64,000 nt of DNA, from positions 458,518-522,517 of the forward strand of contig CM082591.2 of NCBI GenBank assembly GCA_040954595.2. Direction: 5' to 3'. How positions within the stretch are numbered: the first letter of the stretch is position 1; each line of letters starts with the position of its first letter. The notes under the pieces were generated by a model that saw nothing but the letters and a program-made list of their open reading frames with translations, made no database searches and was not told where the DNA came from. Of this stretch, positions 13,201-46,500 are shown piece after piece. The stretch is from Balanoglossus misakiensis. Taxonomy: Eukaryota > Animalia > Hemichordata. Made by a program: the position numbers and the translations under genes.

Positions 13201-13281
13201 AAGGCGCGTAGAAATAGTTTCAAGACTTTTAGGTAGTTATTTTCTTTTTGTACGGGAATGAGCAAGAATCTGTGAAGAAAA

Positions 13282-16900: not shown

Positions 16901-19900
16901 GGATATGTCATTTTTTCATTTGACGTTCCTGTTTAGACTTTGCACAATCAAAATGTGAGAAACACAGCGCTGAAGACAAAGTTTTCCTGTTTTTTATTGT
17001 CTGAGCATGCGTGGAGTGGTTGCAGTTGAGAGAACAAACTGCCATCAGTTTATAAACATGCAAATCTGGAATGCTGCAAGAGTATATACAACACATGGAA
17101 CAGATGTTCATTAATGTTACATTTTTGTGTCTTCAGATTTCCGTTACTGTCAAATGTTATAAAGATCAGTGCGGATTTTCTTTCAGCTTAGGTAAAAATA
17201 TACTATCTTTGTCTTGATTTCCTTTTTTCCTGTACATACTGGGTAAACTAATAAATGCAAAGTCCTCGCAACTAAGCAAAAACGTCAAATAAATGAGCAG
17301 ATGTGGCAATTTTTAGAACTTATCAGAGTATGATTTCAAAGATGTCCTGAGATCTAAGACTGTATACAACACAAATCAATTGAAAAACAATCGCAAATCA
17401 ATATGTTGATGTATGTCACTCGCCAGACACTGCTTTTCATTGCTAAAAAGTTGTTCTCAATCAATAATAAAGTCTGGTGGAATATTTATGGGTATACTTA
17501 AAAATGCAAGAGAAATTAATCTGCCTGAATAGCCATGCATTAATTTTTCAATATTCACACAAGCACCGGAAATTCAGCATGCAAAGAATATTAGTTTATC
17601 AGGTTCAATCGAACATCCATGAAAGTTTAATCTCTCTTCACTAAAAACCACATTTGCTATTTTAAAAATATGCATCACCAATATACAATTTTCTTTTCAA
17701 ATGAATATTTGCATATCTTGGCATATAAATATGTTTTCGGGTTCCCTTAGAAGAGATGTGCCTTTCAGTACATTAGACCTTTTACATCTTCATGATAAAT
17801 ATCAAGTGTGTGGTGGGTGCCATGGTAGTAAAGTGAGGGTAAATATATCAGTTATTTGCAGAACATATTCCATGCCTGTTACACGACTGCAGCGTACAGT
17901 AGAGTGCTGGCTTGTCACATTGTGCAAGGCATACGTGTCTCTTTCAAGGCAAATAGTATCATTGCCCTTCAAAGGGCCCTTGAAAGGTTAAATTGAAGTG
18001 GACTCTGGCTGATACATGTAGGTGTAACGTCAAATTTGCGGATTCATATTCAGACATTGGCGAACCAGAGTGGAGTTTTGGCGATTTCATGTTTCATTCG
18101 GTAAATTATCTTGTGTTTACATGGTTTCGTCACTGATTAGATCACTGTGAGTCATAATATAACTCCTTGATTTTTTTGTGATCAAACAATTTGTTTCAAG
18201 CGAAGTCAATTCCTCTTAGTTGTGGCATTACACCCATGGGAAGGTTAGTGTATTACAACGGACGGCAGGTAACAACCAGTGGCGCCGTAAGAAGGATGTG
18301 TTGCCATGGAAACAAAATCAGCGCCAACGCACTGCTGTAACAACTGCACCTACTCGTGAATCAAAACATTCTTCCTTCTCGCGTTATGTATGAAAACTGA
18401 CAGAACCTCCAGACGGATACAAGAAATATCATAAAGGTTTTAAAATGATGGAGCTTTCATTGAGTTGAATTAGCATAGGCAAGGCAAACTTAAATGATTG
18501 CGACAGTGTATGTGACTTTCAATTTGATCACATGGGGTCAGTTCATGTCCCATGGAGAAATATAAACTATCCTCTTTATTGAAGTTTATAGTTCACTGTA
18601 TCATTGTATGCTTTCCACAATATCCGTGCTGTTTTCCGGTGTTTTGTAATGAAATCTTCCTAATAAGAATAAATAGTAGGAAGAATAGTCGTAGTAATTA
18701 GAATAAATGGCATGAAAATTCACAGTGAGCGATTGGAATCTTGCATGACATCAAAATTCTACCATCTGCGATTAGCAAACACTATACCGTACATATGACA
18801 GACGTCGAGTGTTTTCATGACTGTAGGCAACAAACTAAATCAGAAACAAACACAATTACGGCGACTAAGATAAAATAAACAAGGTACTTTCAACGTGATG
18901 TACTCTTCTATCGATCGCACTTCCGGCGATAAATTCAGCTTTTGTCTACCTGCATAGACACGACGCCGATGGTATGGTCATATTCCGTGACCGAGTCACT
19001 GACCTACATTCAATCAATCACCATAATAATTTATGTACCCCACAAACTGTTGTAAGATATCCAGCAATAATCGCACAATTCAACTGAACTCTATGAAACT
19101 GCAGCGACATTTTTGTTAAGTAAAAGTATTAGATTTGGAGTATTTTAACGAAAATAATACAGTAGAACAGTGACATGTAAACAATTTTCAGGCTATTTTC
19201 AAGATCTTATTATCACAAAGTAGTTCCAATCAATGTTATTGTAGATGAAAAACGCATTAAGGACCAGACTTAAAAGTTAAATGTACTCATGTAAAGTAAT
19301 AGTATTTGCACACTTGAAATTCAACTGGTACTAGATTGATCAACATGCCTTAAAGCAGTAATTTCTTGTTACAGTCCAAAAAAGCCGAAAACAAAATCAA
19401 CTTAGCCAAACTAAACTATCAAATCTTTTACAAAACAGCTTTAAGATATTTACGAGAGGCAATATCTGATTTGAGTTCATTCAATATATTTATCGTCTGA
19501 TTACTTGGAAATTTTGCATGCAGGTCCCTTGGTGCCATCTACTGTAAATCAGATTTGTTCAAATTACGGCAGAATCTGCAATATTACATTTTGAGGGTCA
19601 ATTGCCTTTTTGGTGCAAAAAAACTTCTCAGAATACGTGTTCGAATCAAGCAAAAGCACCAAAAGCAAAAATATTGCGGCGTCTTATTCATAAACCTCAA
19701 GGTATAGACATTGTCTGCACATTGTGTGTAGGGTAATTAAGCCACATGTGTTCACCATCCAGACGATTATATTAACTATCATCTGCTTGTTTCCTTCTGC
19801 CAAGATTTCCCGCCGTTCTCATGCTGCGCTCTACATATTGCCGTCTGGAGAACATGTTTTGTCTTTATCTCAATATGCCATGTAGGAGCCGTTCAGCAAA

Positions 19901-22900
19901 GTAATGACATGTACAAGCTCTGAGATTCCTATTTGTCGGCTCTAAATCTCTAAATGTTTATGGATCTCCCGCCGAATGAAAAATGATACCGACGCAGGAA
20001 TTTCTATTCTTGGGAAGTCTGTAACCGTCGGCGACACATTAATTTGAAATTAGCCTTATAATGACGTCATTGCTATCATTTTAGAAGTTAAATACACACA
20101 GCAGTTCGAGGGATGATGATAATTATTAGCTGACAGCCTTAATGATGCCATGTATTTAAAATTCATATGGACTAATATTTCTGCCGGACACACTGATCAT
20201 GCTCCAACTAAACAAGTTCATACACTTGCCGCAAATGTCATGATTGGAATATGACCATTGCACATTCTATGCAAAGCGGAATCTGTCGGAGAATTCTGCA
20301 TGTCCAACATCTAAACATGACCCTGCATTAACGTGATCTAAAAGAAAACATGGCTGTTATTTCAGTTCTGAAGCTAAACACCGAAAAGTGCTTGGAACCG
20401 CGGTGCTCTGGGGAAATTACAAGTCAATATCTAGCATACTTGAAATATTGTTAATTTCTCCCAAAATTGTGACTGTTAATAACTCTGATCCACTTACACA
20501 GGAAAAAGTAGTTTTTGTCGAAAGTGAATGAGATGCAAATCTATAAAATGAGAGACTAATGGATTTTTCAAGTGGCATATCCGAGAAAGCAAGTGAACTA
20601 TATTCACGTACTATGAATCGACGTTCTAGCAAGTTTTCTGTACAGAACACACATGATGGCCGCTGTCCATGCAAGCAAACTAAATACATGTATTGTGTAT
20701 GTATAGTTTTAGCTGAATACTTTTCTTCTTCAAATAGAACCTTTAATCGGGACAGAAAAATTAGTTGCCTACCCATATATGTGAAATGAAACTTCTTTTG
20801 CCACCATATTCTGTGTTGACTGTTGTGTGCTAACTGGCCAATTTATTTCCAGTTTCATTTACCTTGACCAACAGTTTCCAATAAATTTGAAACACATCTA
20901 CACTACTGGTAATATTATCTGAGTAATGCTACTGCCCTACATTCACAGTGAATCCTGACATGAGTGAACAGATATTAACTAGAAAAAGACTCTCTGTAGA
21001 GCTGCTACGTGCAGAAAGTGTCGTCTGCCAACGGTAGATCAACACACAAAGTATGTGCCCAGTATGATTTCGAGTGAATGGTAATCTCTCCCGCCGTTCT
21101 GGTGTAAACAGATTTCTACTGGGATGTCTAACTTCACTTCTCAATCACAGCAAAGTGCAAATATATGTCTGTTTACAGGCTGTGGATGACGTATAATTCT
21201 TTGCAATTCGTTGGCCTCAAAATATATTGCATCTCTCAATACGATTAATGTAAGCTATATATGAGTACTTTACCATCCCCAAAATAACATTCATTAATAA
21301 CACAGTACCCAGATGAATAAGGTACGAGCACCTGTATATATTTATAGTCAATAATAATAATAGATGCACTGTACCGGTAATCCTGTTATTCCATTTTGGT
21401 TTTAATTCCAGGACCCCAAATTTCTACAGTATTACCCGACCTTGTTGGTGTGAAGATTACAGACGTATTCTCAATCAACAGGCCAATTATTGGTTTTACT
21501 TGGGATGAAGTAAGTAATATATATGAAAATTTAATCTTGAATTAGCCTGTTCAGCTAAAGCCTACAAAATTGGCAGACTGGACTGAGAAACCTTTATGAA
21601 GAACTTCTTTAAAATATGCACCCATGTAGGCAAATACTTTATCCCATTCCTAATTCAGTGTTCCTCACTGTTTCCACTTGACAGAATAAAAAAGAGATTA
21701 TATTCACTCAGATGAATATGAAACAGACTAAATGCTGTTTCAGACAGTGTGACGCTGTCATAATTTGCGTCACTTGCATTTTTGCACAGTGTGTGAAGTG
21801 TGACGCACACTGAGATTGTTATGCTGATGATATTAATCACATTTTACCTTCACTGCCTTTGTTAACTTAGTGTCTGATATTCCCATTTTCATATATCACT
21901 GTTTTTGATATCACATGGCTCAAATGGTTTCAGCTTTAATGCTTACTTACAATCAACAAAATAATTACGTCACAATGCCCCCAGATTCCTTGTATGAGAG
22001 TAAATATGTTTCCACCATAACACAAAAACATGCAGGACGTAAGTGGCATGACAGATGTCGTATAAATACTTTCCAGAATTGCCTTATATGGGCACCCTTG
22101 AGGCAGACGTGATGTTGATGGAATAAAGATGAAATAACATCATCTCTACTTCAGGCTATTTCATGAATTAATACACAGAGATATTTTTCTGTAAATATTC
22201 ACCAACTACAGCTTAATTATCATGAGGCCTGGCCTCAAAGCATGTTTTAGGATCTCCGTAGTGAATGGCAACGCAATGATCAATGCATCACCCATTACCA
22301 GAATGTTTCAATGAAAATTGTGTTCTTTTCTGGAATATTTACGGCAACATACACCCAGACAGATCATCTGTTATTCTATGTTAGAACAGTATGTTTTGCT
22401 GAGTGTCTGACTGACTGACTGACTGACTGGCTGCTTTTTAATGAATTTTAATATAAAGACAAAGGGAAGTGAGGACTGCAGGGTACCTACTTAGCACATC
22501 AATTTATCTTTTAAAAAATCTAACTATTTCATGCTGCTATTTATTCCAGCTTATCGTTCATACCAACAACATCTTCGAAATAGCGTCAATCGATAGAGTG
22601 AATGCTGACACGGTGTTTGCACGGCGTACCAGCGCGCCCAATCACAAGAAGACAACAGTGCCCCCAACTGGTCTCCTGGCTGTCAATTCCACCAATCGGA
22701 GAGCATCAAAAAGTATCAGCAGCAAACATGCCAAGCCTAACTATGATGTCACAAGTGAACTCAAGGCCTTTGAACAATGCACTGGAGAAAACAATGAAGT
22801 ACAGAAAGGTAACAACTCTTTTTTTTTGGCACATGGCTATTAACCCACAACTGATTTCAATGCTAACTTTATATCTTGACCAGTTGTGTAGATTCAATGC

Positions 22901-25900
22901 TGTATTCGTCATGCATATTCTATAGTGTTAATATGAGAGATGAATGGTAGTGCACCTTGAACTGCATATGTCAGTATTGGTACGCTCTCAATGTATGATT
23001 ACCTATAAGTCTTTTGTTCTTAAGGGATCATAGAGTCGGAAAGTGAGGACGAAAACAGCCTGCGACCACGACGGTTGTACCTTAAAGGTCAAATGAAATA
23101 CATGGCCCAGTGGAATTGTATGATATACCTCTGCTCACCGCTGTAAGTTAATGACCACCTCCATGGAAATTTCAGATGTAATCCTCTAAATATCATGCTG
23201 AGCAGTTTAGTAAACTACAGATTGATATCCTATAAGACTTGTGTAGTAATGAGAGGACACTCCTGTGATATCATATTATAAATACAATGGCACATTGTTT
23301 AAATGGTCAAATGCCATTGTCACAATTGTCTGCAAGAATATTATTGTAATATTAGCCTAATTTTCATTGTTATTTATACATTATTTATGTTTTTCTGTTT
23401 TCCTAAGGATGCCTAACTTAGATGCAATGTTCCGTACGGGTCTCTACATTAACGATCTCAGTTTACACGACTCGAGTAGAGATCTTGTGTTGGCTGGGAC
23501 ACAGCAGTCAGTAGAGTTAAAATTAGCCTTAGACCAGGTAAATAAATTTCATTCTGACAATGTCAAAGAAAGACCTTTGCAAGCATGAATCATTTCATTT
23601 GTAGTGTACCGCTATGTGTAGAGATTTTTATAATAACACTTAAGTCACTTCGAGGTCTTTATGTGTGTAATTTACTAGCTGTAATCTTGAGTAATGTTTT
23701 CGTCAATCTTTTTCTTATTTTGTTCCCCATTGTAGGAGCAAAGAAAGAGTGCCAAACTGGCAGAAAGTATGAAGAAATTGGACATTGAAATGAAGCGTAC
23801 AGATTCTCTTTTGTACCAGATGATCCCGCGACAAGTGGCAGAAAGGTTGCGCAGAGGAGAGCCAGCCCTTAGTACATGCGAGGTGAGAGGATTATTTCTT
23901 TAATAACCTTGTCTGACCAACATTTTGGCATTTCAGTTTGCATGTTTGTTACTTTGATATCAAAGCTCGAATCTGACTTAAAATTGTCACATGCCCACTT
24001 GCAGTAGTTGTACCGGTAGTTCTGCATTTCTTACACTATTGTGGACATTTTTATTTGTTTTGTAGGTCTTTAAGGATGTGACAATTTTGTTCAGTGATGT
24101 AGTGGGATTTACACAGATCTGTTCAATGATAACACCAATGGCTGTGGTATCCATGCTGAATGCTATGTACAGCAAATTTGACAAACTCACAGAACAACAC
24201 AAAGTTTACAAGGTATGTATCAAAGTATATATATGTTTGTGTGTGTGTGCAAGGGTGTGCCTGTATGTATGAGCCTGTGAATGTGTGTGTTGTGTGTGTG
24301 TGTACTGTAGATAATATTGTAAAACACTTTATTTTCGCAAGTTGAAATTTTCGCGATATCAAGAGAGGCCAGTTTCGCGAGTATTAATTTTCGCGTTCTC
24401 TTATTTCATTCACTCTATCTTATCTTCAAAAAAATTGATGTGACTTTTTATTTTCACATTATTTTGGCTCTCGCGTATTTCGCGAAAATTCATTGCTTGC
24501 AAAAATAAAGTGTTTTACAGTAGTTATACCTGATACCAATTATTGTATACAACAGGTGGAGACCATTGGAGACGCCTACATGGTGGTATCCGGAGCTCCA
24601 ACCAAGACAAAGTATCACGCTGAACACATCGCAGACATGGCGCTTGACATGGTGACTGGAATGCGAGGACTTAAAGATCCAGCATCTGGTGACTTCATGA
24701 AAATTAGAATCGGTATGTTGTCTGAGATAGTAAAGATGATTGTGGTACTTACATTCTTGATGATAATCCATGCTTGGGTTTAGTTGGTCCCTCAGGCCAT
24801 TCTGTCTGTGAAGAAATTTAATAATGTTTGGTTATTTTGATATATTTTTTTAATTTATATGAATTGAACTGCAGATTTATGCTCTGATTAGATAGTAAAG
24901 ATGATTTTGGTACTTACATTTGTGATGTTAATCCATGTTTGGAATTAATTGGTCCCTCAGGCCATTTTGTCTGCGGAGAAATTTAATTAAATATTATAAT
25001 ATTTGGGTGTAGTTGGAATTTTTTATATTCATATGAATTGAACTGCAGTTTTATGCTCTAATTCCTGAACCATGATGAAATATCCACCAATGTTCATGCT
25101 GTTTTTTGACCTGTTTAATGCAACTTTGATATTAAAGTTACACCATACACTAAAATTCCCCCCTCCCTCTCTCCAGGAATTCACTCAGGTATGGTGGTGG
25201 CTGGTGTTGTCGGCTTGAAGATGCCTCGTTATTGCCTTTTTGGTGACACCGTCAACACTGCATCGCGCATGGAGACGAGTGGTGACACTATGAAGATACA
25301 CATGAGCCACACCACTAAGTTATACCTGGAGCACGCTCCTTATATACTCGTCGAGAGAGGAACATTAGATGTCAAGGTGATTGTCTTTTTTCTGTTATGA
25401 ACAATTTAACATTTCAAGTTGTTAGTCACATTGTATAAATTTTGTTTATCTGTCTTTCTTTCTGTCTATCCATTAGTCATCATTTTGTTCATCTTGTGTG
25501 CTACTTTACCTTTATTTGTCTAATGAAATTCCTACCATTCAATTTCTTTCTCATAGGGCAAAGGTGAAATGAAGACCTACTTTTTGGAAGGCAAACGAGT
25601 TTCTGTTACACAACCTAATGAAAAGACAGTTCACAATGTCAGCGTTGTAGCTGTTGCTGAGATACCAAGAAGTTCAGTCGAGAGTAAAGTGGGAGTCACT
25701 TTTGCCCAAGGAACTGAAATGCCGACAGATTCATCGTCCAAGGAGGACGAGGAATATGAAGAATACAAAAGGGACTTTCCAATGACAGCTGTTCAGAGAC
25801 GATCAGACATCGATTTATCACAAGTCAGTGAATTCTCTGTGCCTATGTCGCCACGCTCGGTGAAGTCAACACTGACTGTCAGTCCAGAAAAGGAGCCAGC

Positions 25901-26600
25901 CTTTCGTCAAAGGTCATCTTCGGCGAATTCTCAGATGTTGCCATCCCGATTGGATAGCAATTTAGAAACAGGGCCGAGTCAGCAACGTCGAAACTCGCTG
26001 GTTTCATTTCTGTCGGCCGATTACACACCTGTTAGTTTTTCTGATGTGGATAGTATCACAGAGCAAGGGCCAACCATGCAAGAACTGGAACAAATGGTGC
26101 ACAATGAAAGAGAAAGAAAGTTGGAAAAAGCGCGCCGCCGTGCAAAATCAAAGTCCAGCATGGATGAGTCGCGACAAATGGGAAAAGGCGCAAGTGGTCA
26201 GAACAACGTTGAGAAAGGTGACCAGTTGGATGATTCTTACGAACAACTGAGCACTCGGCAGAATGGAGATGGTGATGAATCTGTTCCTGGGACTTCAGGT
26301 AACATTGATAATGGCGTTGAAGGTCTGACGTCGCAAAATGAAAGGCAAGGGACTTACAGGCAGGGAAGCAGTCCTGCATCTGCTCAAAACAAGCATGGGC
26401 TTTCCCTGGAACAAAGCGGACCTCAAAACAAGAATGTTGCAAGGACTCCACTAAACCCCCAGCTTGATAATTATCATAAGACAGATAATTTAAACCACAA
26501 CATATATCCGAATAATAACAGCGAGAATAACATCATCACCGAACCGAGAAGTGATACAAAGAAAACGGCAACAAAAAGTACCACCTGCTTGTTACTTTAA
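13282..26600 (+). CDS. Gyc88E: Atypical soluble guanylate cyclase (Gyc88E-like): H-NOX, PAS/HNOBA, coiled coil, class III cyclase domain, long low-complexity tail with CaaX; ~994 aa, 10 coding exons
   Basis: Exons with GT-AG junctions and consistent phase: 13282-13966, 21412-21509, 22550-22808, 23025-23142, 23408-23537, 23736-23882, 24066-24212, 24556-24712, 25177-25376, 25557-26600 (2985 nt). Motifs: [122 protein letters not shown]. The symbol means similarity to the Drosophila atypical sGC; orthology is not proven. Confidence 0.93.
22406..22428. repeat. (GACT)n short microsatellite
   Basis: tctgactgactgactgactgact. Confidence 0.8.
24066..25376 (+). CDS. sGC catalytic-domain exons (24066-24212, 24556-24712, 25177-25376)
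   Basis: [55 protein letters not shown]; the GTP-specifying Glu (ETIGD) and Cys (RYCLF) are present. Confidence 0.95.
24315..24522. mobile_element. ~208-bp MITE in sGC intron 7 (TA-flanked, Tc1/mariner-like non-autonomous element)
   Basis: Left end tattgtaaaacactttattttcgcaag vs reverse complement of right end tactgtaaaacactttatttttgcaag (25/27 match including terminal TA); internal tttcgcg repeats. Confidence 0.8.
24725..25063. repeat. Two-copy ~165-170 bp tandem duplication in sGC intron 8
   Basis: gatagtaaagatgatt(g/t)tggtacttacatt...ggtccctcaggccatt...atatgaattgaactgcag..ttatgctct starts at ~24726 and again at ~24891. Confidence 0.85.
25557..26600 (+). CDS. sGC terminal exon: end of cyclase domain plus ~330-aa Ser/Gln/Asn-rich tail ending KSTTCLLL
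   Basis: Acceptor tcatag|GGC at 25557 continues [13 protein letters not shown]; ORF 25569-26600; stop TAA at 26598-26600. Confidence 0.9.
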   Translation, partial: GKGEMKTYFLEGKRVSVTQPNEKTVHNVSVVAVAEIPRSSVESKVGVTFAQGTEMPTDSSSKEDEEYEEYKRDFPMTAVQRRSDIDLSQVSEFSVPMSPRSVKSTLTVSPEKEPAFRQRSSSANSQMLPSRLDSNLETGPSQQRRNSLVSFLSADYTPVSFSDVDSITEQGPTMQELEQMVHNERERKLEKARRRAKSKSSMDESRQMGKGASGQNNVEKGDQLDDSYEQLSTRQNGDGDESVPGTSGNIDNGVEGLTSQNERQGTYRQGSSPASAQNKHGLSLEQSGPQNKNVARTPLNPQLDNYHKTDNLNHNIYPNNNSENNIITEPRSDTKKTATKSTTCLLL

Positions 26601-30754: not shown

Positions 30755-32435
30755 ATGTCAGAACCATCTGCAGCACTGGTTGTATTGAAATCATGGGACA
30801 AGGAGGCAAAGACCTCCCAACCAACTCAAGCTATAATCAAACATCTCAAAGAAAACACACTCAAGTCTGAGAACATTTCTGAATTCCACTGTACTACCCT
30901 TGAAGTTGAAGTGAGTGAAGAACAAAAGAAAGATGCAGAGAGTGTTAGTGCTACTTTGATCCCAGCTGTAAGAGACAAGAGATTGGATCTTCATGAAGAC
31001 CCCCCTGGAGTAAACTGGCTTGTTCACCATGATACATACTTCCCAGATCTGAAGAGGCTGCAAAACATCAAACATGTAATTGGATACTCCCCAAAAACAA
31101 AGAATGCAGCAGCTGAAATTCATAAAAGTCTCTTCCCTGAAGCCAAACTTCATCAACTCCATCTTCCTGATCCTCCTGGAGTATTATTTGTAAATGAAGA
31201 ATGGAACAAAGAGGACTGTGACTTGAATGGGTTTCACAGAACTCTCGTACAAGATTTCTGTGCAAGAAAAGTCAAAGAAGGAAAACCTGTTAAAGCCTAC
31301 TCCACCTTTGTTGGTGTCAAAGCCAGTGATGACCAGAAGACAGATGCTGCCAGTTGTGATGTCACATTGATTCCAGCACAACCAAAAGACATCACTGATC
31401 AACCGGACTTAAAATGGTTGTTGAATCATGAAAGCTACTTTCCTGATCTGAAAGAGTTAGAAAACATCCAATATGTTGTTGGTTATGCTCCAAAGACGGG
31501 ATTTGCTGCTATAGACATCAGAGCAAAGTTGTTTCCAGCTGCTAAACTTGTTATGATTAACCATGCCTACAAAGATGATAACTGTCTGTTGGAAATTCCA
31601 GACGGGAACCTCAGTGAGATGATGCTGAAGATGGCAAGTGAAGCTGACGTCATATTGTCAATTGGTCCAAAAATGTATGAGCATTTCACTAATGAATACA
31701 GGGCAGAAATTAATGGAAAGAAACTATCCAGTATCCCTCACATGGAGATCCTTCCAAGACCAGGGAAAGTCTTCTTTGACAAAGATCCAACATTACCAGA
31801 TGAAGTGGAAATTCACCGCATACTGACATATGGACAGTTTGATACACCAGAAGCCTTGAACAGATGCGAGATGCTAGCTGCTTCTATTGGAAGTGTAGCA
31901 AACATGCGGAAAGCAGTTGGCCGCAGACCTCCTGTATGGTCAATACTGGGAGCTTCACCAGAAATCCGTCAAACAGAGTTGAAGGGCCTTACAGCCAAAA
32001 CGAAGAGTGATCATGTGAAGACATATCTCAACTTATATTACACAGAAAATAGTCTGCAAACATCACTGCTTCAGTCCCACATTTGTCTTCCTGCATCCTT
32101 CTACAAGAAGTATGGTTTTATTGGGTTAGAATCTGTGGCCATTGGAATACCAACCTTACCTGATGAAGATTCTGAACTTGGTCAGTTTCTCAGCAAATAT
32201 TTTCCAGAGTTTGCAGAAACTTTCTCATTGCCTAACACCATTGATGGAAAAGTAGAGAGGATAATGAAGATTGTCAGTAACATCAGGCTTGCCTTTATCC
32301 AAGCTATGGAACTGAAGAATGCTTTCAAAGTGAGTGAGGATGTGAACAAGAGTTATGCTAAATTTGCTAGTCTGATGTCACCAGAGAAGAAAGAACACCA
32401 GGAACACACAATTGACCAAAGCAGAAAGTCAAAAG
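30755..32435 (+). CDS. GT-B fold, family-4 glycosyltransferase-like exon with a duplicated N-terminal lobe
   Basis: 560 codons with no intron. VLFVNEEW...FHRTL, PDLKWLLNHESYFPDL...YVVGYAPKT...LFPAAKLVMINH, ADVILSIGPKMYEHF, ILTYG, SHICLPAS..KKYGFIGLESVAIGIPTL..DSELG follow the order of GT4 motifs (EW..GG, ADxVxxVG, PSxxExFGLxxLEAxxxGxPxL). Confidence 0.75.
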
Positions 32436-35400
32436 GTATGTTCAAACAAACAAACTTATGTAGATGTTCTGTTCAACAGTTTCAACATTGGACATTTTAT
32501 GATGTATTGCCTACATAGGCTAGTCTGGCTTTTACATGAATATTGTTATACCGGTATAAATGTCATGTAATGATGTATGGTAAACTAAGCTTTCAGCCCT
32601 GTAGCATAATTAATAGGATAATTAACTTACCCCAGTATTTTTAAATCTTGAAATTCGATTGTATGTTCTAACTTATAAAACTTTTTTGGTAAGGGTTATA
32701 ATTTAAGTCACATATTTTGTGGGCATTTTTGAACCAACAAAGATCACTCAAATGCAATTGCAGTACCTGATTTTGCTTTTAACTTACTAATTTATCTATA
32801 TTTCTGCACCCTTTCATTCTGATCATTCCAGACGAAGATGTCAATCATCAAAATCCCATGAACGCTGGACATAATGGAGCAGAACTCCTACCAAGTCAAC
32901 AAACAGTGAAGAGAAAAGTAGAGGAGGCAGTAACCAATAGTAATGACAACAACAAGCAAATAGAGGAGATTCATGATGAGGAGGATGTGGTATCAAGTAT
33001 GGCAGCAGAGCCACTACAAAACACAGAAAACCACGATGACACAACCATTTCATTTCATCTCAGACTGGATGAAAATGCCTATCAGCAGCATCTACGAGAC
33101 GAAACACCGAACGAGGCAATGCAGCAGGCGGCTTCTGCATCTTGGGACAAATGCAAACAGGGGTTGGAGAGAAGAGCAGCTGAAGTGGTAACCAATAGCG
33201 ATGACATCAACAAAGTCAAGAAGGCTTGCACTGACACAATGGGAGAAGTGGACGTAACCGATATGAAGGAGGGATCACTGCAAATCACAGTAAACACGCC
33301 TGTACTTTTTAATCTCTTTAAATTGCGGGCCACTTGTCAATCAAGAAGTTTACCTGAAGCGTTTGAACCAATCTTGATAACAGATGAAATGAGAGAGGAG
33401 GCCAACAGAACTGGAATTCCACTACAGTTGACAGCAACATATAATCAAGCTAGGTTTGATAAACTGGAACTATTCTTTCTGAACAGTAAGTCTGTCCTCA
33501 GGTTTCTGATATTTTTGAGTGTACCGTATTTAACTTATTACAACCCAATGAACAAAATCAGAGAGTATTTTGCATGGCTAATTAAGTTGTTGTATTAATA
33601 AGTTAATTGCTCAAAGTTTAGACATACATTCTTCCAAAACATCAGACTGTACTTCATGACTTTTCCCATTTATTGTCTTTCAGGAGATGGTGGGGGAATA
33701 GGCCCAGTGGAAATACTGGAATATGACAATAGAGTAGAAGAGGAAAGTGTTGATGAAATAATGGATGAGGTACATTAGATTGTGTTATTATAAGGAGTAA
33801 ATTATATAGCATATCAAACTAATGATAAATGCAGTAAAGCATTATAGTAAATTTATGCATTTAACAATTGAATGGAAGACTGTAATGTCCTGATACATGC
33901 ATTACATTTCTTTTACTTCGGTCATAAACAATTTCCACATTTTTGTTGCTTTTACGACTAAACCATAATTATTACATTTCCAATAAAGTTTCACAGAACA
34001 TGTGTGGCTTTCCAAGATGCAGAGATGGAAATCTGTTCTGATCATTTCCAGACTGACCTGAAACAAGGTGAGTACAAGATTTTGGGTTTGTCATCATTTG
34101 AGATTTCTAAACCTACCTTACTGTCATTTAAATCATGGGCAATGGCGTCGTTTTGGCCGTTTAGATAGAAATCATTTAACACAGCTAGAGGCATCATTGT
34201 TAAGTTTTTTTCAGAAAAAAAATTGAAGATAACAGGATTTGTATGTTTTGCAGGTGGGACATTATCCAAGTTATTTCTTGAGATTGATCGGACACATGAA
34301 TTCCAGAAGTTAGCAGACAAACATGCACCTCAGATATTTGACAGTGAGCAGAATAAAAGACACAAAGGAAGAGAGTTTGACATCATACAACTATCAGGGA
34401 AAATGACCAAGAAAGTTCAGCATATCCTGTCTCACAGACCCCGACTCTTAGAGTTACTGGGTGTTAGAAGGTACCTTACGACTGACACAGAAAGGACTGA
34501 TTTCAGTGAATCAGGTAATAAGCAGTGACTTTTAAATGGTGTCAATATAACTCTTTGATACATCACTACAGCAAATCTGACAAGCATAATACACACTCCA
34601 AAGGTTTAACAGAAGCTCTGAGAAATTTTTTCTTTCAGTATCAAGATATGAGGTTGTAGTTAGTGTAAGCTTTCCCGTGGTGATGATACTTTTACAAAGC
34701 AGCCAATAGTACAGGAAATATTTTCCTCGTTCTCAAAAATCACTACTCTCAATGAACAATTATCGCCATACATCCATCAGTAAATTTTCTATCAAAATAT
34801 AAAACTGGCACATTCAAAATTCATGGAATTTGACAGCCAATGTTTCTTGCATATGCATATCATACCTAAGTCAATAATTCGGTGAAATTTACTTTACAGA
34901 TTTAAATAATAATGTGAAAGTAAAGTATTTGGCAGAGCATCTACTCAGATCTGCAGATTGTTAAGTATACATCATTGAAATAATTACATTAAATCTACTT
35001 CATTTCAGATTTGGAGGGAAAAATCATACAATATGGCACACCAGTTCTTTCCATTACAGCAGAATCTATCAGCTCACAAGCACAAAGCTTACTGCCCTTT
35101 GAAGTTAGTCTAAAACAGTTCCAAGAAATGCAGTCCCTGAAATCAGATAAGAAATCTCTTAAACAGCATTTGGATGAGACCTTGGCAGAAAGGTCCAAAC
35201 TTCGAGCAGAAAACATGATTCTAGAGAATCAGTTGAAAGAAGCAATTCAGGAAAAGTCCCTCTTAGAAAAGCAGTACAAAGATTGTGTTCAGAAACTTGA
35301 AAAAACAGAAAAAGTAGCTTTCACACAACTTATGGATGTCATTTCCCTCAAGCAAAGATTGAAAGAATCAGACCCTAGACACATCCAAGAGTTGAAGTCC

Positions 35401-38400
35401 AAACTTGATCAGAAAGACCAAATAATTGCTGAACTCAAATCAAAATTATCCCAAGCTGAGCTACAGCTGAAAAAGGCTATGGGTCTTCAACTGGGAGAAG
35501 ATATAACATTGAAAACTGGGCAAGGTGAGATTGATTGGGATGTGGTCATGACATAAAAAGAGCTGGTTCATATTATTAGTAAGCCTTGTAAATGAGACAT
35601 GTTGATGATAACAACAATCCAGAGGATGTACCATATTGGCTTTCATTTTATCTTGTTGCTTCAATTTTCACTATCAATAACTTTATAAGAGAATGTTTCT
35701 GATGTTTTTCTACTTTAAGTTTAAACTGAGGTCACAATATTCTGTTTAATTTTCAACACTGTTTATCCGGCTTTTGAAGATACGTTTATTAACAAACTCA
35801 GGGGAATTCAATTTTTGACTTCTCATTTCAATTTGAATTAAAGCTGATGATACTGAAACTACTGAGGAAAAAGAAACTGGGGATGCCAAAACCAAACCAA
35901 CACAACCTGAGATGAGAAGAGAAGAAGAAACTGGATCGGGGGAAACCAAACATCCACAACCTGAGACAACTGCAGAAAAAGAAACTGGGGATGCCAAAAC
36001 CAAACCAACACAACCTGAGATGAGAAGAGAAGAAGAAACTGGATCGGGGGAAACCAAACATCCACAACCTGAGACAACTGAGGAAAAAGAAACTGGGGAT
36101 GCCAAAACCAAACCAACACAACCTGAGACAACAAGAGAAGAGGCATCTGGGTCTGCAGACCTAACCAAACAAGATGAACCAAAGTCAAAAGAAAGACAGA
36201 GTACCACTAAGAAAGGTAAGTCAATGAAACCTGACATACTCAGAAAATGTATGGAGGCTAAATGTACAGAACACATTTCACTGGCATTAGTGGCTAACAG
36301 TCTTTCAGTGTTTCCTCAAGGATCCCATGTTAACCCTTTACCCCCTAGTTCCCTCTATAGAGGTCCACATTTACCATAGAAAATGATAGACTTGGACCAA
36401 ACCATGGTGGTGAAAGGGTTAAAAGCACTGCAGGCATATGTTTTACACATTTAGCTTACACCATTGCATTCATAGTACAAATCATGAAATTCAAATTAGG
36501 AACTTACCAATTTTCTTTATCCAAGTGACAATCTGGAACAGCCAGTGGTATTGAGACAGACCATTATCATGACTCATCCTAAGTGACTGAAGGTTTTCCA
36601 TCTTTCAGATCATCCGCAATGATTAACAAACTCCCTTCAGATAGATTTTCTAGTAAAAATATGATCACCATTTTCATTAGTCTATTTTTGTTTCAAGTAG
36701 CCCACCTAGGACAACAATATCAGTAAATTCTTCAAAGTTAAAGTTACATTTAATTTCACATACATTTGTTCAACAAAAATACTCACTTGGTCTCAGAAAG
36801 TGACAGTCTTCTCAGCTGAGGACAGTAGATTTGTTCTCTGTTCACCAATGTGATAATTACTAATTTGACAGCAGACCATCTCTGGGTGGGCTGGAAAAAG
36901 AAACAAAGGTAATATTCATCTCATTCTTAAAGGCATTTTTCTTTCCCGACCTGTAACACAAACCAAGAACTGGCTGACCTACTGGTATATGTGGTTCAAA
37001 ATGATTGTAACCATGTTATCAAGATATATCAAAATCAATATATTCAATATAATCATCTTTAAAATTAAGACAATGATCATTGTTTTACTGATCTGGTCAT
37101 GTATGTTGCCATGGTAACTTGGTATTGAAAAACTTCAAACATATAGAGTACTTTGGCAGAAAATTTATCCAAGCATTAATTCAATTTGTTAAAAGAAGTT
37201 TTATTAAAACACTGACTAACTCTTGCAAAGTGCCATATTTTTCAAAATAAATTCAGTTGCCATGGTTACCAGTTAATAATGTTACCGTAATAAATTTGTT
37301 CAGGAAAATAACGAACTAAGGAATTATCCCTGAAGTTTAGTTCAAGAATTTTTATGAAAGGTCTATTGAGTCAAAAGTTACGAGAAAAAGAGCATTTTTG
37401 ACTTGATTTCTTCAAATGCGTTACCATGGGAACATCAATGTTAATATATCCATTTGATTTTTAAATAAGAATATCTTTCATGCATATTATAAAAATATGT
37501 CTAAAAAGAGACAAAGTAAATTTTCTCCCCAGTATTGCAGAGAAATAGAAATAGTTCCAGAAACTGGGGGTTAGTCTGGTTGCCATGGTTACTAATCACT
37601 GTAAACATTGTGTAGAAAAACTACCCCTTAGTAGTTCAGTTGTCATAGCAATGATTCGTTTATTTTGTAATATGTTTTCTCTTGTTAAAATGAACAATAA
37701 AACACTAACTCTAGCATATTCCTAATGCATTTCAATACAGCATGTTTGACCTTTGACCTTTGTTTCACCTAACAGGTCACTGGTCAATGAGGGCACTGGA
37801 CGGCCAAAGTCCAAAGCCAGGACGAAAGTTTAAACAACCAAGAGGTATGGTGTTCCACGGTGACAAACTGGTGGTGTGTGACAATGACAACAGGGTTGTA
37901 CAGATACTGAATCAAGATTACACCTGTGACAAAGTCTTGGGAAGTTTTGATGGTCAGTTTGCAAAGCCATTCCAGCCACGGGATGTAGCTGTCTCCCATG
38001 ACAACATCTACTTCATAAGTGATAAGGGAAATTCTCAAATTGTTGTTTGTGATCAAAACAATAAAATTCTTAGAATAATTACTCTACCTGCAGGCGTCGA
38101 TGTCTGTGGCATCGCTCTACTGAATGGATTTGTTTTGGTCATTGGTTTCAAAGATCATCGGCTACTCAAGTACACCCAAGATGGTCAGTATGTTGCAGAG
38201 GTTGGTGGTAAAGGTCGTGGCCAAACACAATTCCATCACCCATTCTCTGTGGTGGTCAACAGTAAGAATGTCATCATGGTGTCTGACTGTAACAATCACT
38301 GCATCAAGTGTTTTGATGCTGAATTGAAATTCTTGTATCAATTTGGTGTGGAAGGTTCAGGTCCTGGTCAGCTGTTGTGTCCATTCAGCATTGACGTCGA

Positions 38401-38593
38401 TGATGACGATAATTTGTTTGTGTGTGATGCGGGGAATTCTAGGATTGTGAAATGGAGATTTGATGGAGGGTGGATCTGTCACTTATTTGAAGGTGAGGTG
38501 AGTGTCCCTCAGTTCCTTGCAGTCAGCGGTGACAGAATTGCTGTTAAAGAGCAGTACAGCAACCAAATCAAAGTATTCTACAAGCAGACATAA
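30755..38593 (+). CDS. Multidomain protein: GT4/GT-B glycosyltransferase-like module + TRADD-N-like domain + coiled coil + 18-aa repeats + NHL beta-propeller; ~1488 aa, 8 coding exons
   Basis: Phase-consistent exons: 30755-32435, 32832-33485, 33684-33769, 33989-34067 (weaker aag acceptor), 34254-34514, 35009-35524, 35844-36215, 37776-38593 (4467 nt). Acceptor gatag| at 30748 lies just before the ATG. Joining all exons into one transcript is inferred from splice signals and phase. Confidence 0.78.
32832..33485 (+). CDS. Exon with acidic linker and TRADD-N-like domain
   Basis: VTDMKEGSLQITVNTPVLFNLFKLRATCQSRSLPEAFEPILITDEMREEA...LQLTATYN resembles the TRADD-N pattern GS(L/I)xIxVxxxSLxxLxxLxxxxxSGxLxxxxxxxLxT, recognised by eye. 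Confidence 0.6.
35009..35524 (+). CDS. Coiled-coil exon of the GT4/NHL gene
   Basis: ORF 35011; L/K/E/Q heptad-rich sequence (LKQHLDETLAERSKLRAENMILENQLKEAIQEKSLLEKQY...); catttcag| acceptor and g|gtgag donor. Confidence 0.8.
35858..36150 (+). repeat. Coding minisatellite: 54-bp (18-aa) units alternating A/B, giving a 108-bp higher-order unit; ~5.5 units
   Basis: TTEEKETGDAKTKPTQPE / MRREEETGSGETKHPQPE repeated within exon 35844-36215; near-identical DNA at a 108-bp period. Confidence 0.92.
36330..36422. mobile_element. Tiny TTAA-flanked piggyBac-like MITE
   Basis: ttaaccctttacc...ggtgaaagggttaa inverted termini with TTAA at both ends; related copy at 61707-61782. Confidence 0.65.
37776..38593 (+). 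CDS. NHL-repeat six-bladed beta-propeller (TRIM2/3/71-like NHL), terminal exon
   Basis: ORF 37760-38593; FKQPRGMV...VCDNDNRVVQI, FQPRDVAV...ISDKGNSQI, GGKGRGQTQFHHPFSVVVNS...VSDCNNHCIKCFD, FGVEGSGPGQLLCPFSIDVD...VCDAGNSRI; acceptor aacag| at 37776. Confidence 0.92.
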
Positions 38594-38779: not shown

Positions 38780-39083
38780 ACAGAAATTAATTGTAGGTGC
38801 AGTCGCTACATGTACTGAGTGTAGGCAAAATAAACTGAGGGTGTTTTGAGTAATTTTTGCAGTTTATTTTGAGGGATTTTGAGACAAGACTGTTTGAAAC
38901 TGAATGCAATCCGTCAACTTGGAATGTAAACAATCAAAAATTGTTTTTTTTTTTCCACATTTACTAAGACATTTTTGAAAGAAACTTATTTCAGCCTACA
39001 GTCGCTTCATGTAACGAGTATAAACAATCCAAATCTGAGTCGTTTTGGAATATTTTTACTCGGTTTTTTTTATGAATTTTGAC
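38780..39083. repeat. Old diverged duplication (~200-bp period) downstream of the NHL exon
   Basis: cagtcgct(a/t)catgta..gagt(g/a)ta...ctgag...gttttg at ~38800 and ~38999. Confidence 0.45.
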
Positions 39084-40502: not shown

Positions 40503-43500
40503 TCATTCACTTGGTGATTGTTTAAGTCGAATGGAAAGTCTCTTTGATTCCATCAGTTGTTTCATCTTCTTGTTGTTTTTCCATGACTTTTTGTGGAATC
40601 TCACTTTGTGTCTGACTGGAGTGTTTGATCCCCATGCACTAGGTGACCTTTCACCTTTGCTACTTGACATGCGACTTTTACCCTTTTCAGGATCAATCAG
40701 GGCCATTGAAAGTCGTTTCATAGCATCAGCTGTCTGTCTTTCTTCAAACGCTGAGACCTTCCTCAACACAGACTTTGGTTGTGATTTCAACGATGATTTC
40801 ACTGACACAGGAGTCCTTGATCCACGTGATTTTGATTTGATTTCGTCTTTGGACGAAACAGTCAGTTTGTCAAACTCGCTGAGATCCATCCCATGAATTT
40901 TCAGTTCATCAATTCCACTCAGCCGTTTACCCAACACGCCAATTTGAGTATGTTGTTGTTGTTGTTGTTCCTCCAGATTTTTCTTTTCTTCTTCAATCCC
41001 AGAATCCTCCTCTTCAGTTGTTTGATGGTTGGCAGAGTTCCTATCTCTCTCCTCCTCTTTGGCAGTTTCCTTTTCCATCAAATAGTCGTACAGTACTGCA
41101 GCGCTGCCGACACGTGCATGTTTATAGCGCCCTCGCTCTACTCTTTTCAGATCCATCTGTCGCAATCGCGAGCTGAGCAGATAAGCACGCAACTTGGAAG
41201 AGTCTGTGGGTCCAACATTGACATCTGAACTAACACTCTCATCCAAGCCATCAAGTTTCAGATGGTGTGTAAACAGTTTGTCCTTCTCACTTGAGGTGTC
41301 ACTCGATCGCTTTGTTTCATTCCGCGCGTCTCTCGGTGTTGACGCTTTCCTCTCCCATCCTCTACGGATCTCTCTAGAGGGTGCTATTCCAAGTGACCGC
41401 GCATTGCACTGCTTTTCATGCGTTCCCATAAACACTCGCGGTTCAGGTTGGCTAAGTCTCTTGATCTGTTCCTCAGTGAGGCCTGGCTTTTTCTTTTTTC
41501 TAACCTGAAAGAGACAATATTCAAATGTAACTCTCAAGGTTTTTTTATTTAACAAGCCGCACAATTTTCTCTTGATAAAATACCACAAAGAATCACTTAA
41601 ATCCTACTACAACCCAAGCGATATGTGACAACGTAAATTGAAACTTATTTGCTGTTTCCATTTCAACTCTTAAAAGACCACTTTATTGTAAGCTGTGTGT
41701 TTGCAATCAAATTTAAAGTGATATAGAAACTGCACCAGGCAGGAAATAATACGCCTGGTTCAATATTAACTTTTAATTTTACGTCAAAGAGGAGGAACAA
41801 GAATCTGTGGGCGATTGAAGTGGCAAATAAAAACTCGAGTTTCAAAATTTACCAATTGTTGAGAATTTGTGTGGATTTTGTAATTAAATCCTCAGGGATA
41901 TCCTGGAATAAATTGAAATAAACACATCTTGAAATTTCCCATCAGGTTTCCTGTCAAAGTTAGTTGCTAGGCAACTGCTCTACGTACTGTACCAAAATAT
42001 TCAATTATGGTGGGTTGGAGCAGAATGCCAGTAGAACGCTGTGGAACTCATTAGAAAATTTCTCATAGGAGTGAGTGTATCTGTGAACTTTACGCACAGA
42101 TTTCAGACAGTGTTACATCAAGAATATATATCAATTTTAACTAAAGCAAATTCTACAATTGTGATATTGTCAGCCGTACCTCTCTGGGTGGCAGTGGTGG
42201 TCTTTGATTGTGAAGTCTTTCTTCTCTGCGTTTTCTGAACGATGGAAGAAGTACATCTACTTCTTCATTCAGTAATTGCTGTGTCTTCTCTTCCTGTGTG
42301 ACAAAAAAATACCAAATGTACATCGAGTGCGTGACAGGACATTCACAGTCAAAATAAAAGAAGCTAACAGCAAGGGAGAGAACATACACATGACATAAAA
42401 TGTAATCGTTACCTTTGGCATACTCCTTCTTGTTATGTCAACAAAATAATGCAAGGAAATTGTGTGAAAGGCTGATGACAATTTTAGGAGACACAAAATG
42501 TTTATGACAGCACGATGAGGAAGATTTATAAAAGATGGTTGAGAACTGGAAAAGTCAGTCTATGAAACCTGTTGATAGTGCAGCGGCAGTTCCTGAAGTT
42601 GCTCTCAAATGTTCTTCTAATTCAGAGGAGAAAGTTCCACTGAATATTCACTCAGGTAAAATAATGTGAGGACACTATGGAATTCCACAATGTGTTACAT
42701 CAAAGTATCCTCAGGTTACGCCTTTCAAACCACACAGCTGTGCGGAATGCATGAAGACAGAACTCCACCTCTAGACAAAGACCACACAGAATACAGCGAG
42801 TCCAACTCCTCTGCGTACAGGTTGAACAACGTCAATCAATTATAATGTTTGTATATATCCTCACACAACAGCGAATGAGAACTCCTGATTCACGATAAAT
42901 TTCCAGTCCCTCTTTGAACCTGATGAATTCAAAGTCTGTTTCTCTCGTCTCGGATCCAAGACGTCACTATGACTGAAGTGGAAAACTAACCTACGTAAGT
43001 ACAAGGTACTTGGCAACGAGGGAGACCACTCATCACAATTCAGTCAACATTAACGTGTTCCAGAGCCAATAACAGCTAGGGGGCACAGACAGCCAAAGGC
43101 CATTTCCATCGCAACAATTACACAGCATACATAACTCTTCAATTAACCAAGGCCCACACAAATACTGAACAAGACATGAATACAGGTACCTCTTTTAACA
43201 AAAACTCTAGGGTATAAAGATTCCACATGTGATCGAATGTAACTATGACAATGGCGATCAGTCAGTCAGTTTTCCCAAATCAACAGGATGTGGTTTGTCT
43301 GGCATGAAGATTTCCACAATTAGGACAAATTTTCATCCTCAAAAATATTATAATAAACTATAAAATGCATGAGGAAACTTACCAGAGAATATGCACTATG
43401 TATAACAATAATGCAGTAGTCTCAAAATGACTCTACTTGAATCACAAACATAGACACACACATGTATCAGAGAGAAATGACCGAGCAATGAACAACCCTT

Positions 43501-46500
43501 GGACCATGAGAATAACACACCTGTTTGGCTAGACATAATACCAGTCCATTCAAGGGAAATGGATTAACCAGGTCGCTGAGAAGATTAATTGCAGATTCCC
43601 TGGTTCCTCTTCACAATCATCAATGATGTCCATTTATTTGAGCGTACTTGTCATGAATAATTAATTCAACTAATAAGATGTCTCTGACCCATCAATTGTT
43701 GGGAAGGAGGGAAGGGGAGGGGGAATCAATATTTTTCTGGACTATTGAATACTCCACTCTCCTGATTGTCCAAGACAGTTTGTATGTGTGCTACATTGGA
43801 AACTGGCAAGGTGACAAGTAACATATAAATAAAGCACTTTAAGACTTCTTACCAGCGTTTCAATTTCATACTGTAAGCTATCGATCAAATTCTGTCTTGC
43901 TGTTCTCTCGGTGACTAAGATACACTGAGGAGTTTGAGGTCTCTGGTACGGCACTGTTTTCATCCACGGTCGATGCACGACAGATTGTGACTCTGTCTCG
44001 CTGTACGTATCCTCCGATCTGAAAGGAAGTGTTCCAAATTGCATGCTGGGAGGAAACGGTTTGAAGAACTTTGAATTTGGTGACATGATCCGAACAGCAA
44101 TTGGTGGTTCACTTGGTTCAACATACAGACTGGATGGAGCTGACTGGATTCCTAGAGAGAGAGAGAGAGAGAAAAGATTTATACAATAACTATGGTTCTT
44201 GTACGAGAGAAAGATCTGAAACAAGTGATTTTTTCATCTGATGAATAGTTGATATGCTTACCATGTCTGCCTTTATTTTTGGTGAAGTTTAGCAATCGTT
44301 TCAATTTTTCCTCACTGTCCATTGGAAAGCAACCATCACCCTGAATAAATTGAGGAGAAATAAATAAATTGGTTTTAAAAAATACAAATGATATAACATA
44401 GATTCCTGTGATTTCTTGTTAATTTTTATAATAATTTCACCAACACCACCACCATCACCATCACCTGATGACTTCATAACCTTGATACTTAGTTATTTAC
44501 CAGTGTTACAGATTATAAATATTTATGATTAAAGTATCTTGGGTCAATAAATGCAAGTGCAAGTGTGAGATTTATTTCAAGGAAAGATTCACCAGCGGCC
44601 CACTGAAAGAAAATGTTAACATTCTAACTTCGAGCCCTCTACAGGTCATATGTAATATTCTTCTGTTGTATTTAAACCTGTCTCCACACTACAACTACAT
44701 GGTTTGGGTCTGACGTATGACATGATCTCTTTTCAAAAGATCTGTGCAAACACTGAGAAGACACTACATGTAATACAAGAAACTGGTGACATGCACTGGG
44801 GGAAAATAAAAAAGGAACAAGATGACAGTTCAATGAAAAAGCAACCACGTCTCAAACCAGCAAAGGAATCAAACACAATCCCCAAACATTCAGAATATTA
44901 ACTTTTGTATCTAAGAATCCTATAACTCATAGAGTTTTCACTACATTTCATTTTGACATCTCAGTCACAGGTACCTCAGCATACTTGGAGTTGATAGGCG
45001 AAAAGAGTTGAACATAAAAGTGTACAAACTAACATACACAAAACAAACACACACAAACAAATCAGAGGTTGATTAAAACCACAAAAGTTCACACTCAGAA
45101 TGACACCTAGACTCCACACACACAAAAGTCATTGTCAATTACGAGACCCAGAAGCTTTCCAGTATTTTTCCACGAGTGTTTGAGGTTTGAATCACTAACA
45201 AAAAATAGTTTCTGCTCATTCAACACATAAGCACACAGAACAGTACAATCTGAGATATTAGCAAAACTTAAACGTATCAAAACTTCATTTTTACAAAAGC
45301 CAAATGACATGCACATTCAACAACAAATAACAATGGACGAATTATACAAAGATTACGAACGAACAAACCTCTGAGTCAGAGGTATGAAGAGGAGTGGATT
45401 CTGAAGTTGCCGCGGTAACGCGGACAGGTGCAGAGGCAGGACGTGGTTTCCTTGTTGTTTCAGTTTCCTCCTTGCGCTTGTAGGCATCCGGTCGATACTG
45501 TATCTATGTTGGAGAGACGAACAACACACAGACAAACATGCACATTCTGGTACAATAGATAACTGTGGGTGCAGATAGACTTTGGTGCAGACATACAATC
45601 AACATCAAATATTCAATGTCCATTTAGAAGTTCAATGCTAAATCATGTTTAAATTAACTACGTCCTATGAAAAGTCTGTACAGAATGCTGGCATCTTTTA
45701 ACAGGTTCCCAAAATAACCATACTGCTGTATTCAAGTCCTAATTCATTGAAGCTCATCTGACTTGCACTGATGTACTGAATATCGATGAAGGACAACGTT
45801 AACACTAACTTCTAATTTTTATTTTTCCTCTTCTTTGTTGGAAGACAAGTTAGTACCAAACATCAAACCGCAAACAATTATTTTAACTTCTAACCTTATG
45901 CCTGGCATATTTCCCTTAGAAGCTTAAACACACTTTGGTATTAACAGTGTTCGAAATTCATAGGAAAGCTCAACCAGTCACCAGGACTGGCAACTTCAAA
46001 AAGTTGCCAGTCCTTCCAAAAACTTACCAGTCCTGATATTATGCCTTACAATTAAATGTAATCAAATACAACTGAGAAGCTATCACCTTATCTGTGAACA
46101 ATTGAAGATGGGGTGGAATCATCTTTCTCTTTACATTACTTTGATTTGATAATTTTCAAGCTTTTACATCATTGTTTCTTTTATTTGCAATACATGAACT
46201 GGGGAAAGTCTATAAGATGCCATGATACCTCTGGTCAACTCCCATGCTAAATTCAACTGTCTGTCGGACTGGTAACATTTTATTTTCACCAGTCCTACAG
46301 AAAAACAACCAGTCTCGGACTGTCGGACAGGCTTTATTTCGTACACTGGTATTAAAATGTCAAAAACAAAATCCATGCTTTTCAAGAGACTGCTGAGTTG
46401 CTTTGGTTACCACCCTACCTGGTCAACTGTGCTCGGTCGCTGTTTGAGGTTCGTAAATAACGACGTGCGTAATCTCTCGAACGCTGGCGCTGAAATTGGT

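Follow-up and report, generated by a model that had tools for sequence, protein, structure and literature searches.

A predicted pseudo-glycosyltransferase joined to a TRADD-N-like domain and a variable NHL propeller in the acorn worm Balanoglossus misakiensis

What does a protein do that carries a glycosyltransferase fold at one end and an NHL propeller at the other? The question is raised by a gene on the forward strand of a 64-kb stretch (64,000 nucleotides, here called the window) of the Balanoglossus misakiensis genome (assembly GCA_040954595.2, contig CM082591.2, positions 458,518 to 522,517). One open frame of eight exons runs from an ATG at 30755 to a single TAA stop at 38593 and encodes 1,467–1,488 amino acids; positions are those of the whole window and residue numbers those of the 1,488-residue form. 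A sequence-only reading had seen in it an undescribed innate-immune or conflict receptor, a TRIM-NHL chassis whose head had been replaced by a GT4 effector and a TRADD-N adaptor. An immune or conflict receptor still appears to be the likeliest role; the effector, the replaced head and the novelty of the layout are not upheld below. We lean towards an intracellular (cytosolic) immune sensor with a hypervariable NHL face and a pseudo-glycosyltransferase acting as scaffold or switch for a TRADD-N-like adaptor, because the glycosyltransferase (GT) lacks its donor-binding residues, is joined to a signalling adaptor, and is accompanied by a propeller face that differs between copies.

The GT module lies in exon 1:
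30755–32435, forward strand: exon 1 (residues 1–560), starting at the ATG; relatives align from their own residues 1–36
30767–31159, forward strand: partial duplicate of the GT4 N-terminal lobe (residues 5–135); the segment matches both copies in relatives
31169–32383, forward strand: GT4-conflict domain, predicted pseudo-enzyme (residues 139–543)

The GT-B-like fold called from the sequence is borne out by the Pfam GT4-conflict profile (PF20706), which matches residues 144–524 with an E-value of 6.8e-32 (111 bits against a cut-off of 26) and is covered from position 1 to 372 of its 385. The same scan gives two GT4-conflict stretches in exon 1. The duplicated N-terminal lobe is present in two copies in the relatives P0001, P0002 and P0034 and absent from several members in Glandiceps talaboti; this predicted partial duplication is new. 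A search with exon 1 returned 29 long proteins, 28 from Ptychodera flava (44–52% identity) and one from amphioxus, together with at least 23 shorter ones, all from P. flava; the P. flava counts are of proteins, including isoforms and likely alleles, and not of genes.

In GT4 enzymes, an Arg and a Lys bind the donor pyrophosphate and the two Glu of the EX7E motif bind the sugar and the ribose, one Glu being expendable in some enzymes (PMC8760489; this and the other papers are cited from extracts). The Gly-rich N-terminal loop matters in ALG2 (bioRxiv 2025.10.15.682550). As no solved GT was among the 41 PDB matches of a hemichordate GT profile, an amphioxus member was used to place the catalytic columns; it aligns at the motifs with the solved GT4 6KIH. 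In the window protein, the R, K, E and P of amphioxus are replaced by Q361, N369, K451 and K452, while H270 is kept; the EX7E motif is incomplete, with K451 at the first Glu and E459 retained. The comparison was extended to 60 full-length hemichordate-type domains, taken from 81 profile hits among 105 proteins after 21 partial hits were dropped, and to 121 amphioxus domains, which are one query and the best 120 of its 354 matches and so form a close-relative control and not a sample of the whole family. In the joint alignment, the Arg is present in 113/121 amphioxus but 2/60 hemichordate-type domains, the Lys-Gly in 115/121 against 0/60, the first Glu in 120/121 against 4/60, and all three in 108/121 against 0/60. 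When the sets are collapsed at 90% identity, all three residues are found in 95 of 107 amphioxus domains and in none of the 54 hemichordate-type ones; a Gly-Gly loop is found in 82/107 against 1/54, and a shifted KG or RG nearby occurs in none of the 54.

The claim of a GT4 effector is not supported by this comparison, and the loss of the Arg, Lys and first Glu across the acorn-worm clade is, as judged from these alignments, new. For Kaur et al. 2021 (PMC8195603), the GT4 conflict domain of animals is an effector enzyme, a role for which the papers searched contain no test. Among the best 12 of the 24 places in that paper that mention 'inactive', 'catalytic' or 'active site', none states that these GT4s are inactive, and a literature search that lacked most subscription journals found no published report of their inactivity. 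Since the second Glu (60/60), the His (57/60) and many core residues are kept in the hemichordate-type domains, the GT fold is under selection. The second Glu and the His would also suit an active effector with a remodelled site, released by propeller sensing to glycosylate invader or host molecules; an Asp or Glu lies one position past the lost Glu in 58/60 domains, one Glu is dispensable in some enzymes as noted above, and, in amphioxus, proteins with this layout are in the set with intact motifs. We consider such an enzyme unlikely: loss of the Arg and the Lys-Gly is accompanied by loss of the Gly-Gly loop, the column of the lost first Glu is in the 97th percentile of variability, and the window protein has Lys at both acid positions (K451 and K452), so that even the shifted acid is missing. 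The domain is likely a scaffold or switch rather than an enzyme.

A dead GT could still bind. It might serve as a second sensor, using the Glu and His that it retains to hold a nucleotide or nucleotide-sugar, or as a decoy that baits the inhibitors with which pathogens would block active GT4 effectors, with the TRADD-N-like domain as relay. In favour are an invariant ribose-binding Glu, one or two extra copies of the acceptor-side lobe, variation at cleft positions 451 and 456, and a weak predicted contact between the GT and the TRADD-N-like domain (see below). Relaxed constraint explains the variability of the dead site equally well, and the best 120 of the 354 GT4 matches are all from amphioxus, which gives no view of active acorn-worm GT4s that a decoy could mimic; we hold this role to be unlikely. 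Retention of a GT4-like fold for binding after catalysis is lost has a likeness in streptococcal GtfB, the inactive GT-B partner of GtfA, which is a bacterial stand-alone chaperone-like subunit.

The putative adaptor is encoded by the next exon:
32832–33485, forward strand: exon 2, an acidic linker followed by the TRADD-N-like domain at 33035–33484 (residues 629–778)

The Pfam TRADD-N profile (PF20694) does not match exon 2, nor any of 76 scanned proteins from the exon-1 and exon-2 relative searches; the earlier TRADD-N assignment stands on fold and on profile-profile comparison. AlphaFold, run with 50 aligned sequences, gives a four-stranded ferredoxin-like β-α-β-β-α-β fold at a predicted local distance difference test score (pLDDT) of 96. 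The signature of the DEDD2 clade of the TRADD-N superfamily is an RRM-like fold with a tiny residue and a Ser at the β2-β3 turn (Kaur et al., PMC8195603). The Gly-Ser of the GSLQITV motif sits at this turn (Ser codon 33275–33277); the Ser is present in at least 90% of the 50 aligned rows, and the residue before it is often not tiny in relatives. Foldseek ranks the TRADD N-terminal domain 1F3V first (E 0.012), and VIA-align ranks 1F2H second of 48,161 (Z 5.8, root-mean-square deviation 4.5, 111 aligned residues), weak TRADD-N scores of this kind being common to other ferredoxin folds. HHalign gives, as an indirect link to curated members, 91% over 69 columns to a profile built from three amphioxus domains, of which two match PF20694 (30 column shuffles, at most 19%); the linker domain of the GT4-NHL proteins of amphioxus is matched at 88% (30 column shuffles, at most 2%). 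An Atlas search with the TRADD-N-like region of P0001 gave no usable match. Fold and profile evidence combined, at moderate strength, make a DEDD2-clade TRADD-N probable. The vertebrate TRADD N-terminal domain (1F3V, 1F2H) shares the ferredoxin-like topology and the conserved turn serine; it differs in that identity is ~11%, in extra helices and in the lack of a Death domain in the window protein. The search with the exon-2 domain returned 61 representatives, including proteins of P. flava, G. talaboti and Saccoglossus kowalevskii; three of the matches are unrelated repeat proteins with weak E-values.

The GT module and the TRADD-N-like domain were also modelled together. The interaction prediction score from aligned errors (ipSAE) is 0.51, and the best of three controls scores 0.00. 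At 0.60 and below, calibration let through only 5 of 78 solved complexes, along with all four of the mismatches that passed. At least 92% of contacts recur between runs, and the partner pLDDT is at least 87. This is a weak hint that the GT module provides a docking site for the TRADD-N-like domain, which fits the clamp model proposed in Kaur et al. (PMC8195603).

The candidate ligand-binding end is the last exon:
37776–38593, forward strand: exon 8, NHL propeller, intronless, through to the stop codon

The NHL call is firm (Pfam PF01436, E 4.5e-17, 62 bits against a cut-off of 20), and six blades are counted from the repeat motifs. The 18 top-face positions were taken to be, in each blade, the two residues flanking the Pro and the one that follows the strand-b Asp; these loops form the top, ligand-binding face of the NHL propeller (PMC4015489). 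Of 30 aligned rows, 21 entered the entropy calculation; those left out were an isoform duplicate, rows below 48% identity and the amphioxus rows. The mean is 2.53 bits at the 18 positions, against 1.11 at the 247 other columns and 1.34 at 109 polar columns, and 12 of the 25 most variable NHL columns are top-face positions. That these positions are hypervariable among relatives is, on the alignment, a new observation.

The closest solved propellers are those of TRIM71, Thin and TRIM3 (E about 1e-37), and the top face of relatives carries two to six Arg or Lys and several aromatics, as might be expected if the protein were a TRIM-NHL-like regulator of RNA in housekeeping or development. In zebrafish LIN41, RNA is contacted by Arg564, Arg581, Arg611, Lys628 and Tyr658 (PMC5908797), which fall in the same position classes as our 18 when counted on the 6FPT alignment. 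The basic contacts are not kept in the window protein, which has Q1237, N1253, Q1283 and D1325 (blade register as assigned here) and a net charge of −1 on its top face. The top face is also the least conserved part of the propeller. No RING or B-box pattern is found in the model, nor such a Pfam match in the exons or relatives scanned, as the sequence-only reading had noted. An RNA regulator of this type is quite improbable, though a viral RNA, or RNA bound in a different mode, is a possible ligand.

The sensor that we favour would work as follows. At rest, the TRADD-N-like domain would be docked on the pseudo-GT in a closed state, a step that the predicted contact weakly suggests. The coiled coil would dimerise the protein. 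Capture of a foreign ligand (a protein of a pathogen, a glycan or RNA) by the propeller would cluster or open the protein; the freed Ser-bearing surface of the TRADD-N-like domain would then recruit downstream adaptors of inflammatory or cell-death signalling. No strongly hydrophobic 19-mer is present in the model (maximum 2.0), and there is no clear membrane segment. Several points weigh against this sensor. The acid beside the lost Glu could belong to a remodelled active site, the protein has no Death-fold domain as output module, and, in the extracts of Kaur et al. (PMC8195603), MATH is not a universal partner. In VIA-align, a Y1 transposase (Z 6.2) ties with TRADD-N, and the TRADD-N matches by fold score lower than the tools require for confidence. 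The top-face positions were fixed from the NHL consensus after the alignment had been seen, the rows are related, so that p-values are overstated, and entropy among paralogs measures variability and not positive selection (the ratio of nonsynonymous to synonymous substitution, dN/dS). A wider proposal, that acorn worms turned a bacteria-derived GT effector into a dead switch that clamps TRADD-N, and used it as a chassis for shuffled hypervariable NHL and other tails, is possible but doubtful. If true, it would describe an NLR-like receptor repertoire in which the switch is a pseudo-glycosyltransferase instead of an NTPase.

Whether the head or the tail was exchanged can be judged from the relatives. 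GT4, exon-2 (TRADD-N-like) and NHL modules are all found in 15 of the 28 long P. flava relatives, one of them with only a partial NHL, and the NHL is missing from the other 13. The coiled-coil exon matches 13 of the 15 NHL-bearing relatives and 10 of the 13 NHL-less ones; the NHL-less set may include truncated models, and compositional similarity alone can make coiled coils match, but the alignment shows a shared motif. Other tails on the same front are TPR (P0017), NB-ARC and TPR (P0028) and a PARP14-like tail (P0080). As the coiled coil is found in NHL-less relatives and the front carries other tails, the NHL appears to be one tail among several on a GT4-TRADD-N chassis. It is encoded on a single intronless exon behind a phase-1 intron. 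The sequences favour a shuffled NHL tail over a TRIM protein with a new head, the origin proposed from the sequence alone. TRIM-NHL proteins (TRIM2, TRIM3, TRIM71/LIN-41, Brat, Thin) do share the order of coiled coil and C-terminal NHL and the same predicted binding face. They differ in that the window protein lacks RING, B-box and filamin domains, its coiled coil goes with the GT4 chassis, and the binding face of its family is hypervariable whereas the TRIM-NHL face is conserved. Lineage-specific expansion, a variable ligand face and swappable tails, the marks of a diversifying receptor, are all found in the family.

Individual relatives show further rearrangements. P0080 (G. talaboti, 3027 residues) joins the GT4 and TRADD-N-like front to a whole PARP14-like protein (RRM, KH, Macro, WWE and PARP). 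P0055, also from G. talaboti, has two TRADD-N-like matches; with P0053, P0059 and P0071 it represents four family loci of that species, suggested to form a single cluster. In P. flava, P0026 has an extra N-terminal DED, P0025 a reverse-transcriptase piece at its end, and P0009 an additional GT domain of more degenerate sequence, with its modules in another order. The Saccoglossus protein XP_006819467.1 (P0226) belongs to the catalytically degenerate clade and matches the exon-2 domain; it is listed as 'GT4+TM+TM+Snf7' in the Figure 6 source data of Kaur et al. 2021.

The layout itself is not undescribed, as had been thought; it is already catalogued, though uncharacterised. Kaur et al. 2021 (PMC8195603) list 'GT4 + TRADD-N + beta-propeller' for amphioxus LOC109485438, whose propeller is an NHL, and report GT4 before TRADD-N in cnidarians, cephalochordates and hemichordates. 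Their table also gives amphioxus a Death + TRADD-N + coiled coil + propeller protein, so heads vary too across the wider family. The supplement was covered by the best 17 of 149 places for GT4+TRADD-N and 25 of 60 for Saccoglossus, and further matching rows may exist; in the text of the supplement, 'Ptychodera' does not occur in file 6 and 'NHL' does not occur in files 4 and 6, where the domain is labelled Beta-propeller. The amphioxus GT4-TRADD-N-NHL proteins have the same domain order, a constant front with a variable tail and a lineage-specific expansion, and their linker domain is the one matched by the exon-2 profile. Unlike the acorn-worm clade, amphioxus GT4s retain the Arg, Lys and EX7E; the acorn-worm clade adds the duplicated N-terminal lobe, the optional exon-5 module and the repeat linker. 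In a quick tree of 58 GT domains (midpoint root, no outgroup), four P. flava proteins form the sister group of the window domain, with 98% support in the Shimodaira–Hasegawa-like approximate likelihood ratio test (SH-aLRT). A long branch divides the acorn-worm and amphioxus GT4 sets, and the four amphioxus NHL-tailed ones fall inside the amphioxus set. The window NHL scores 133 bits against TRIM71 and 73–81 bits against amphioxus propellers. The comparison hints at a separate capture of the NHL tail in the two lineages.

The remaining features of the gene are as follows:
33684–33769, forward strand: exon 3, a conserved DGGG at its start and an acidic linker after it
33989, 34025 or 34052 to 34067, forward strand: exon 4, acceptor uncertain, content without homology support
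34254–34514, forward strand: exon 5, optional conserved module of ~85 residues, in some relatives only
35009–35524, forward strand: exon 6, predicted coiled coil (about residues 955–1080)
35844–36215, forward strand: exon 7, charged repeat linker with 18/36-residue units at 35853–36141
38829–38834, forward strand: candidate polyadenylation signal AATAAA

All introns of the model are GT-AG and six of the seven are phase 1. The three alternative exon-4 acceptors all preserve the frame, as do skipping of exons 3 and 4 and omission of exon 4 together with a switch to one of two alternative exon-3 donors. An acceptor at 33997 was ruled out as it breaks the frame, and a candidate mini-exon at 36872/36875–36908 (34 or 37 nt) was dropped as it would shift it. 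An AG acceptor 7 nt 5' of the ATG suggests a further 5' untranslated exon. All six modules recur, in unchanged order, in P. flava P0027, which aligns as one piece to residues 8–1484 (38% identity). As a sequence, the eight-exon gene is real, in agreement with the earlier reading; its splicing is predicted. The fusion could instead be an artefact of the gene model or a non-functional copy, with the GT-TRADD-N exons and the NHL exon as separate units. The 13 NHL-less P. flava relatives would suit this, as would a G. talaboti locus annotated with isoforms that have and lack the NHL tail (P0225 and P0071) and an in-frame ATG near the start of exon 8. The 4.4 kb of coding sequence has no stop or frameshift, the splice sites are canonical with matching phases, and NCBI models in P. 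flava and G. talaboti are collinear; an artefact is very improbable.

Pfam gives nothing significant on exons 2, 5, 6 and 7. The exon-5 module is well conserved, has symmetric phases (1-1), is present in 26 relatives of the collected set and belongs to no Pfam family. An Atlas lead that it is a second TRADD-N (0.83 for the P0027 copy, a score reached by shuffled proteins about one third of the time) is not supported by HHalign against three profiles (at most 0.3%). The coiled coil proposed for exon 6 agrees with weak Pfam coiled-coil matches and a hydrophobic fraction at a/d positions of 0.53–0.73 in the best register; no solved structure matches it at E up to 1. The 18-residue repeat of the exon-7 linker is real (54-nt period, 5.1 copies) and is better described as a 36-residue (108-nt) unit in 2.7 copies at 95%.

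No upstream DED exon of the P0026 type and no second family copy are among 291 tblastn matches in the window; the gene is the only family member in these 64 kb, unlike its clustered relatives. Upstream of it (13276–26600, forward strand) lies a gene of the soluble guanylate cyclase type (HNOB E 2e-49, with HNOBA and Guanylate_cyc pieces). Downstream, long open frames on the reverse strand (40503–41603 and 43742–44233), with no Pfam match at E up to 0.01, belong to a convergent gene.

Amphioxus and acorn worms offer sister sets of the same layout, one with the catalytic residues intact and one with them lost, and so allow a direct test of whether the GT module is an enzyme, a sensor or a scaffold. 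The hypervariable propeller face points to an intracellular recognition family in a group of deuterostomes whose immune systems have received little attention, and it names the residues to mutate.

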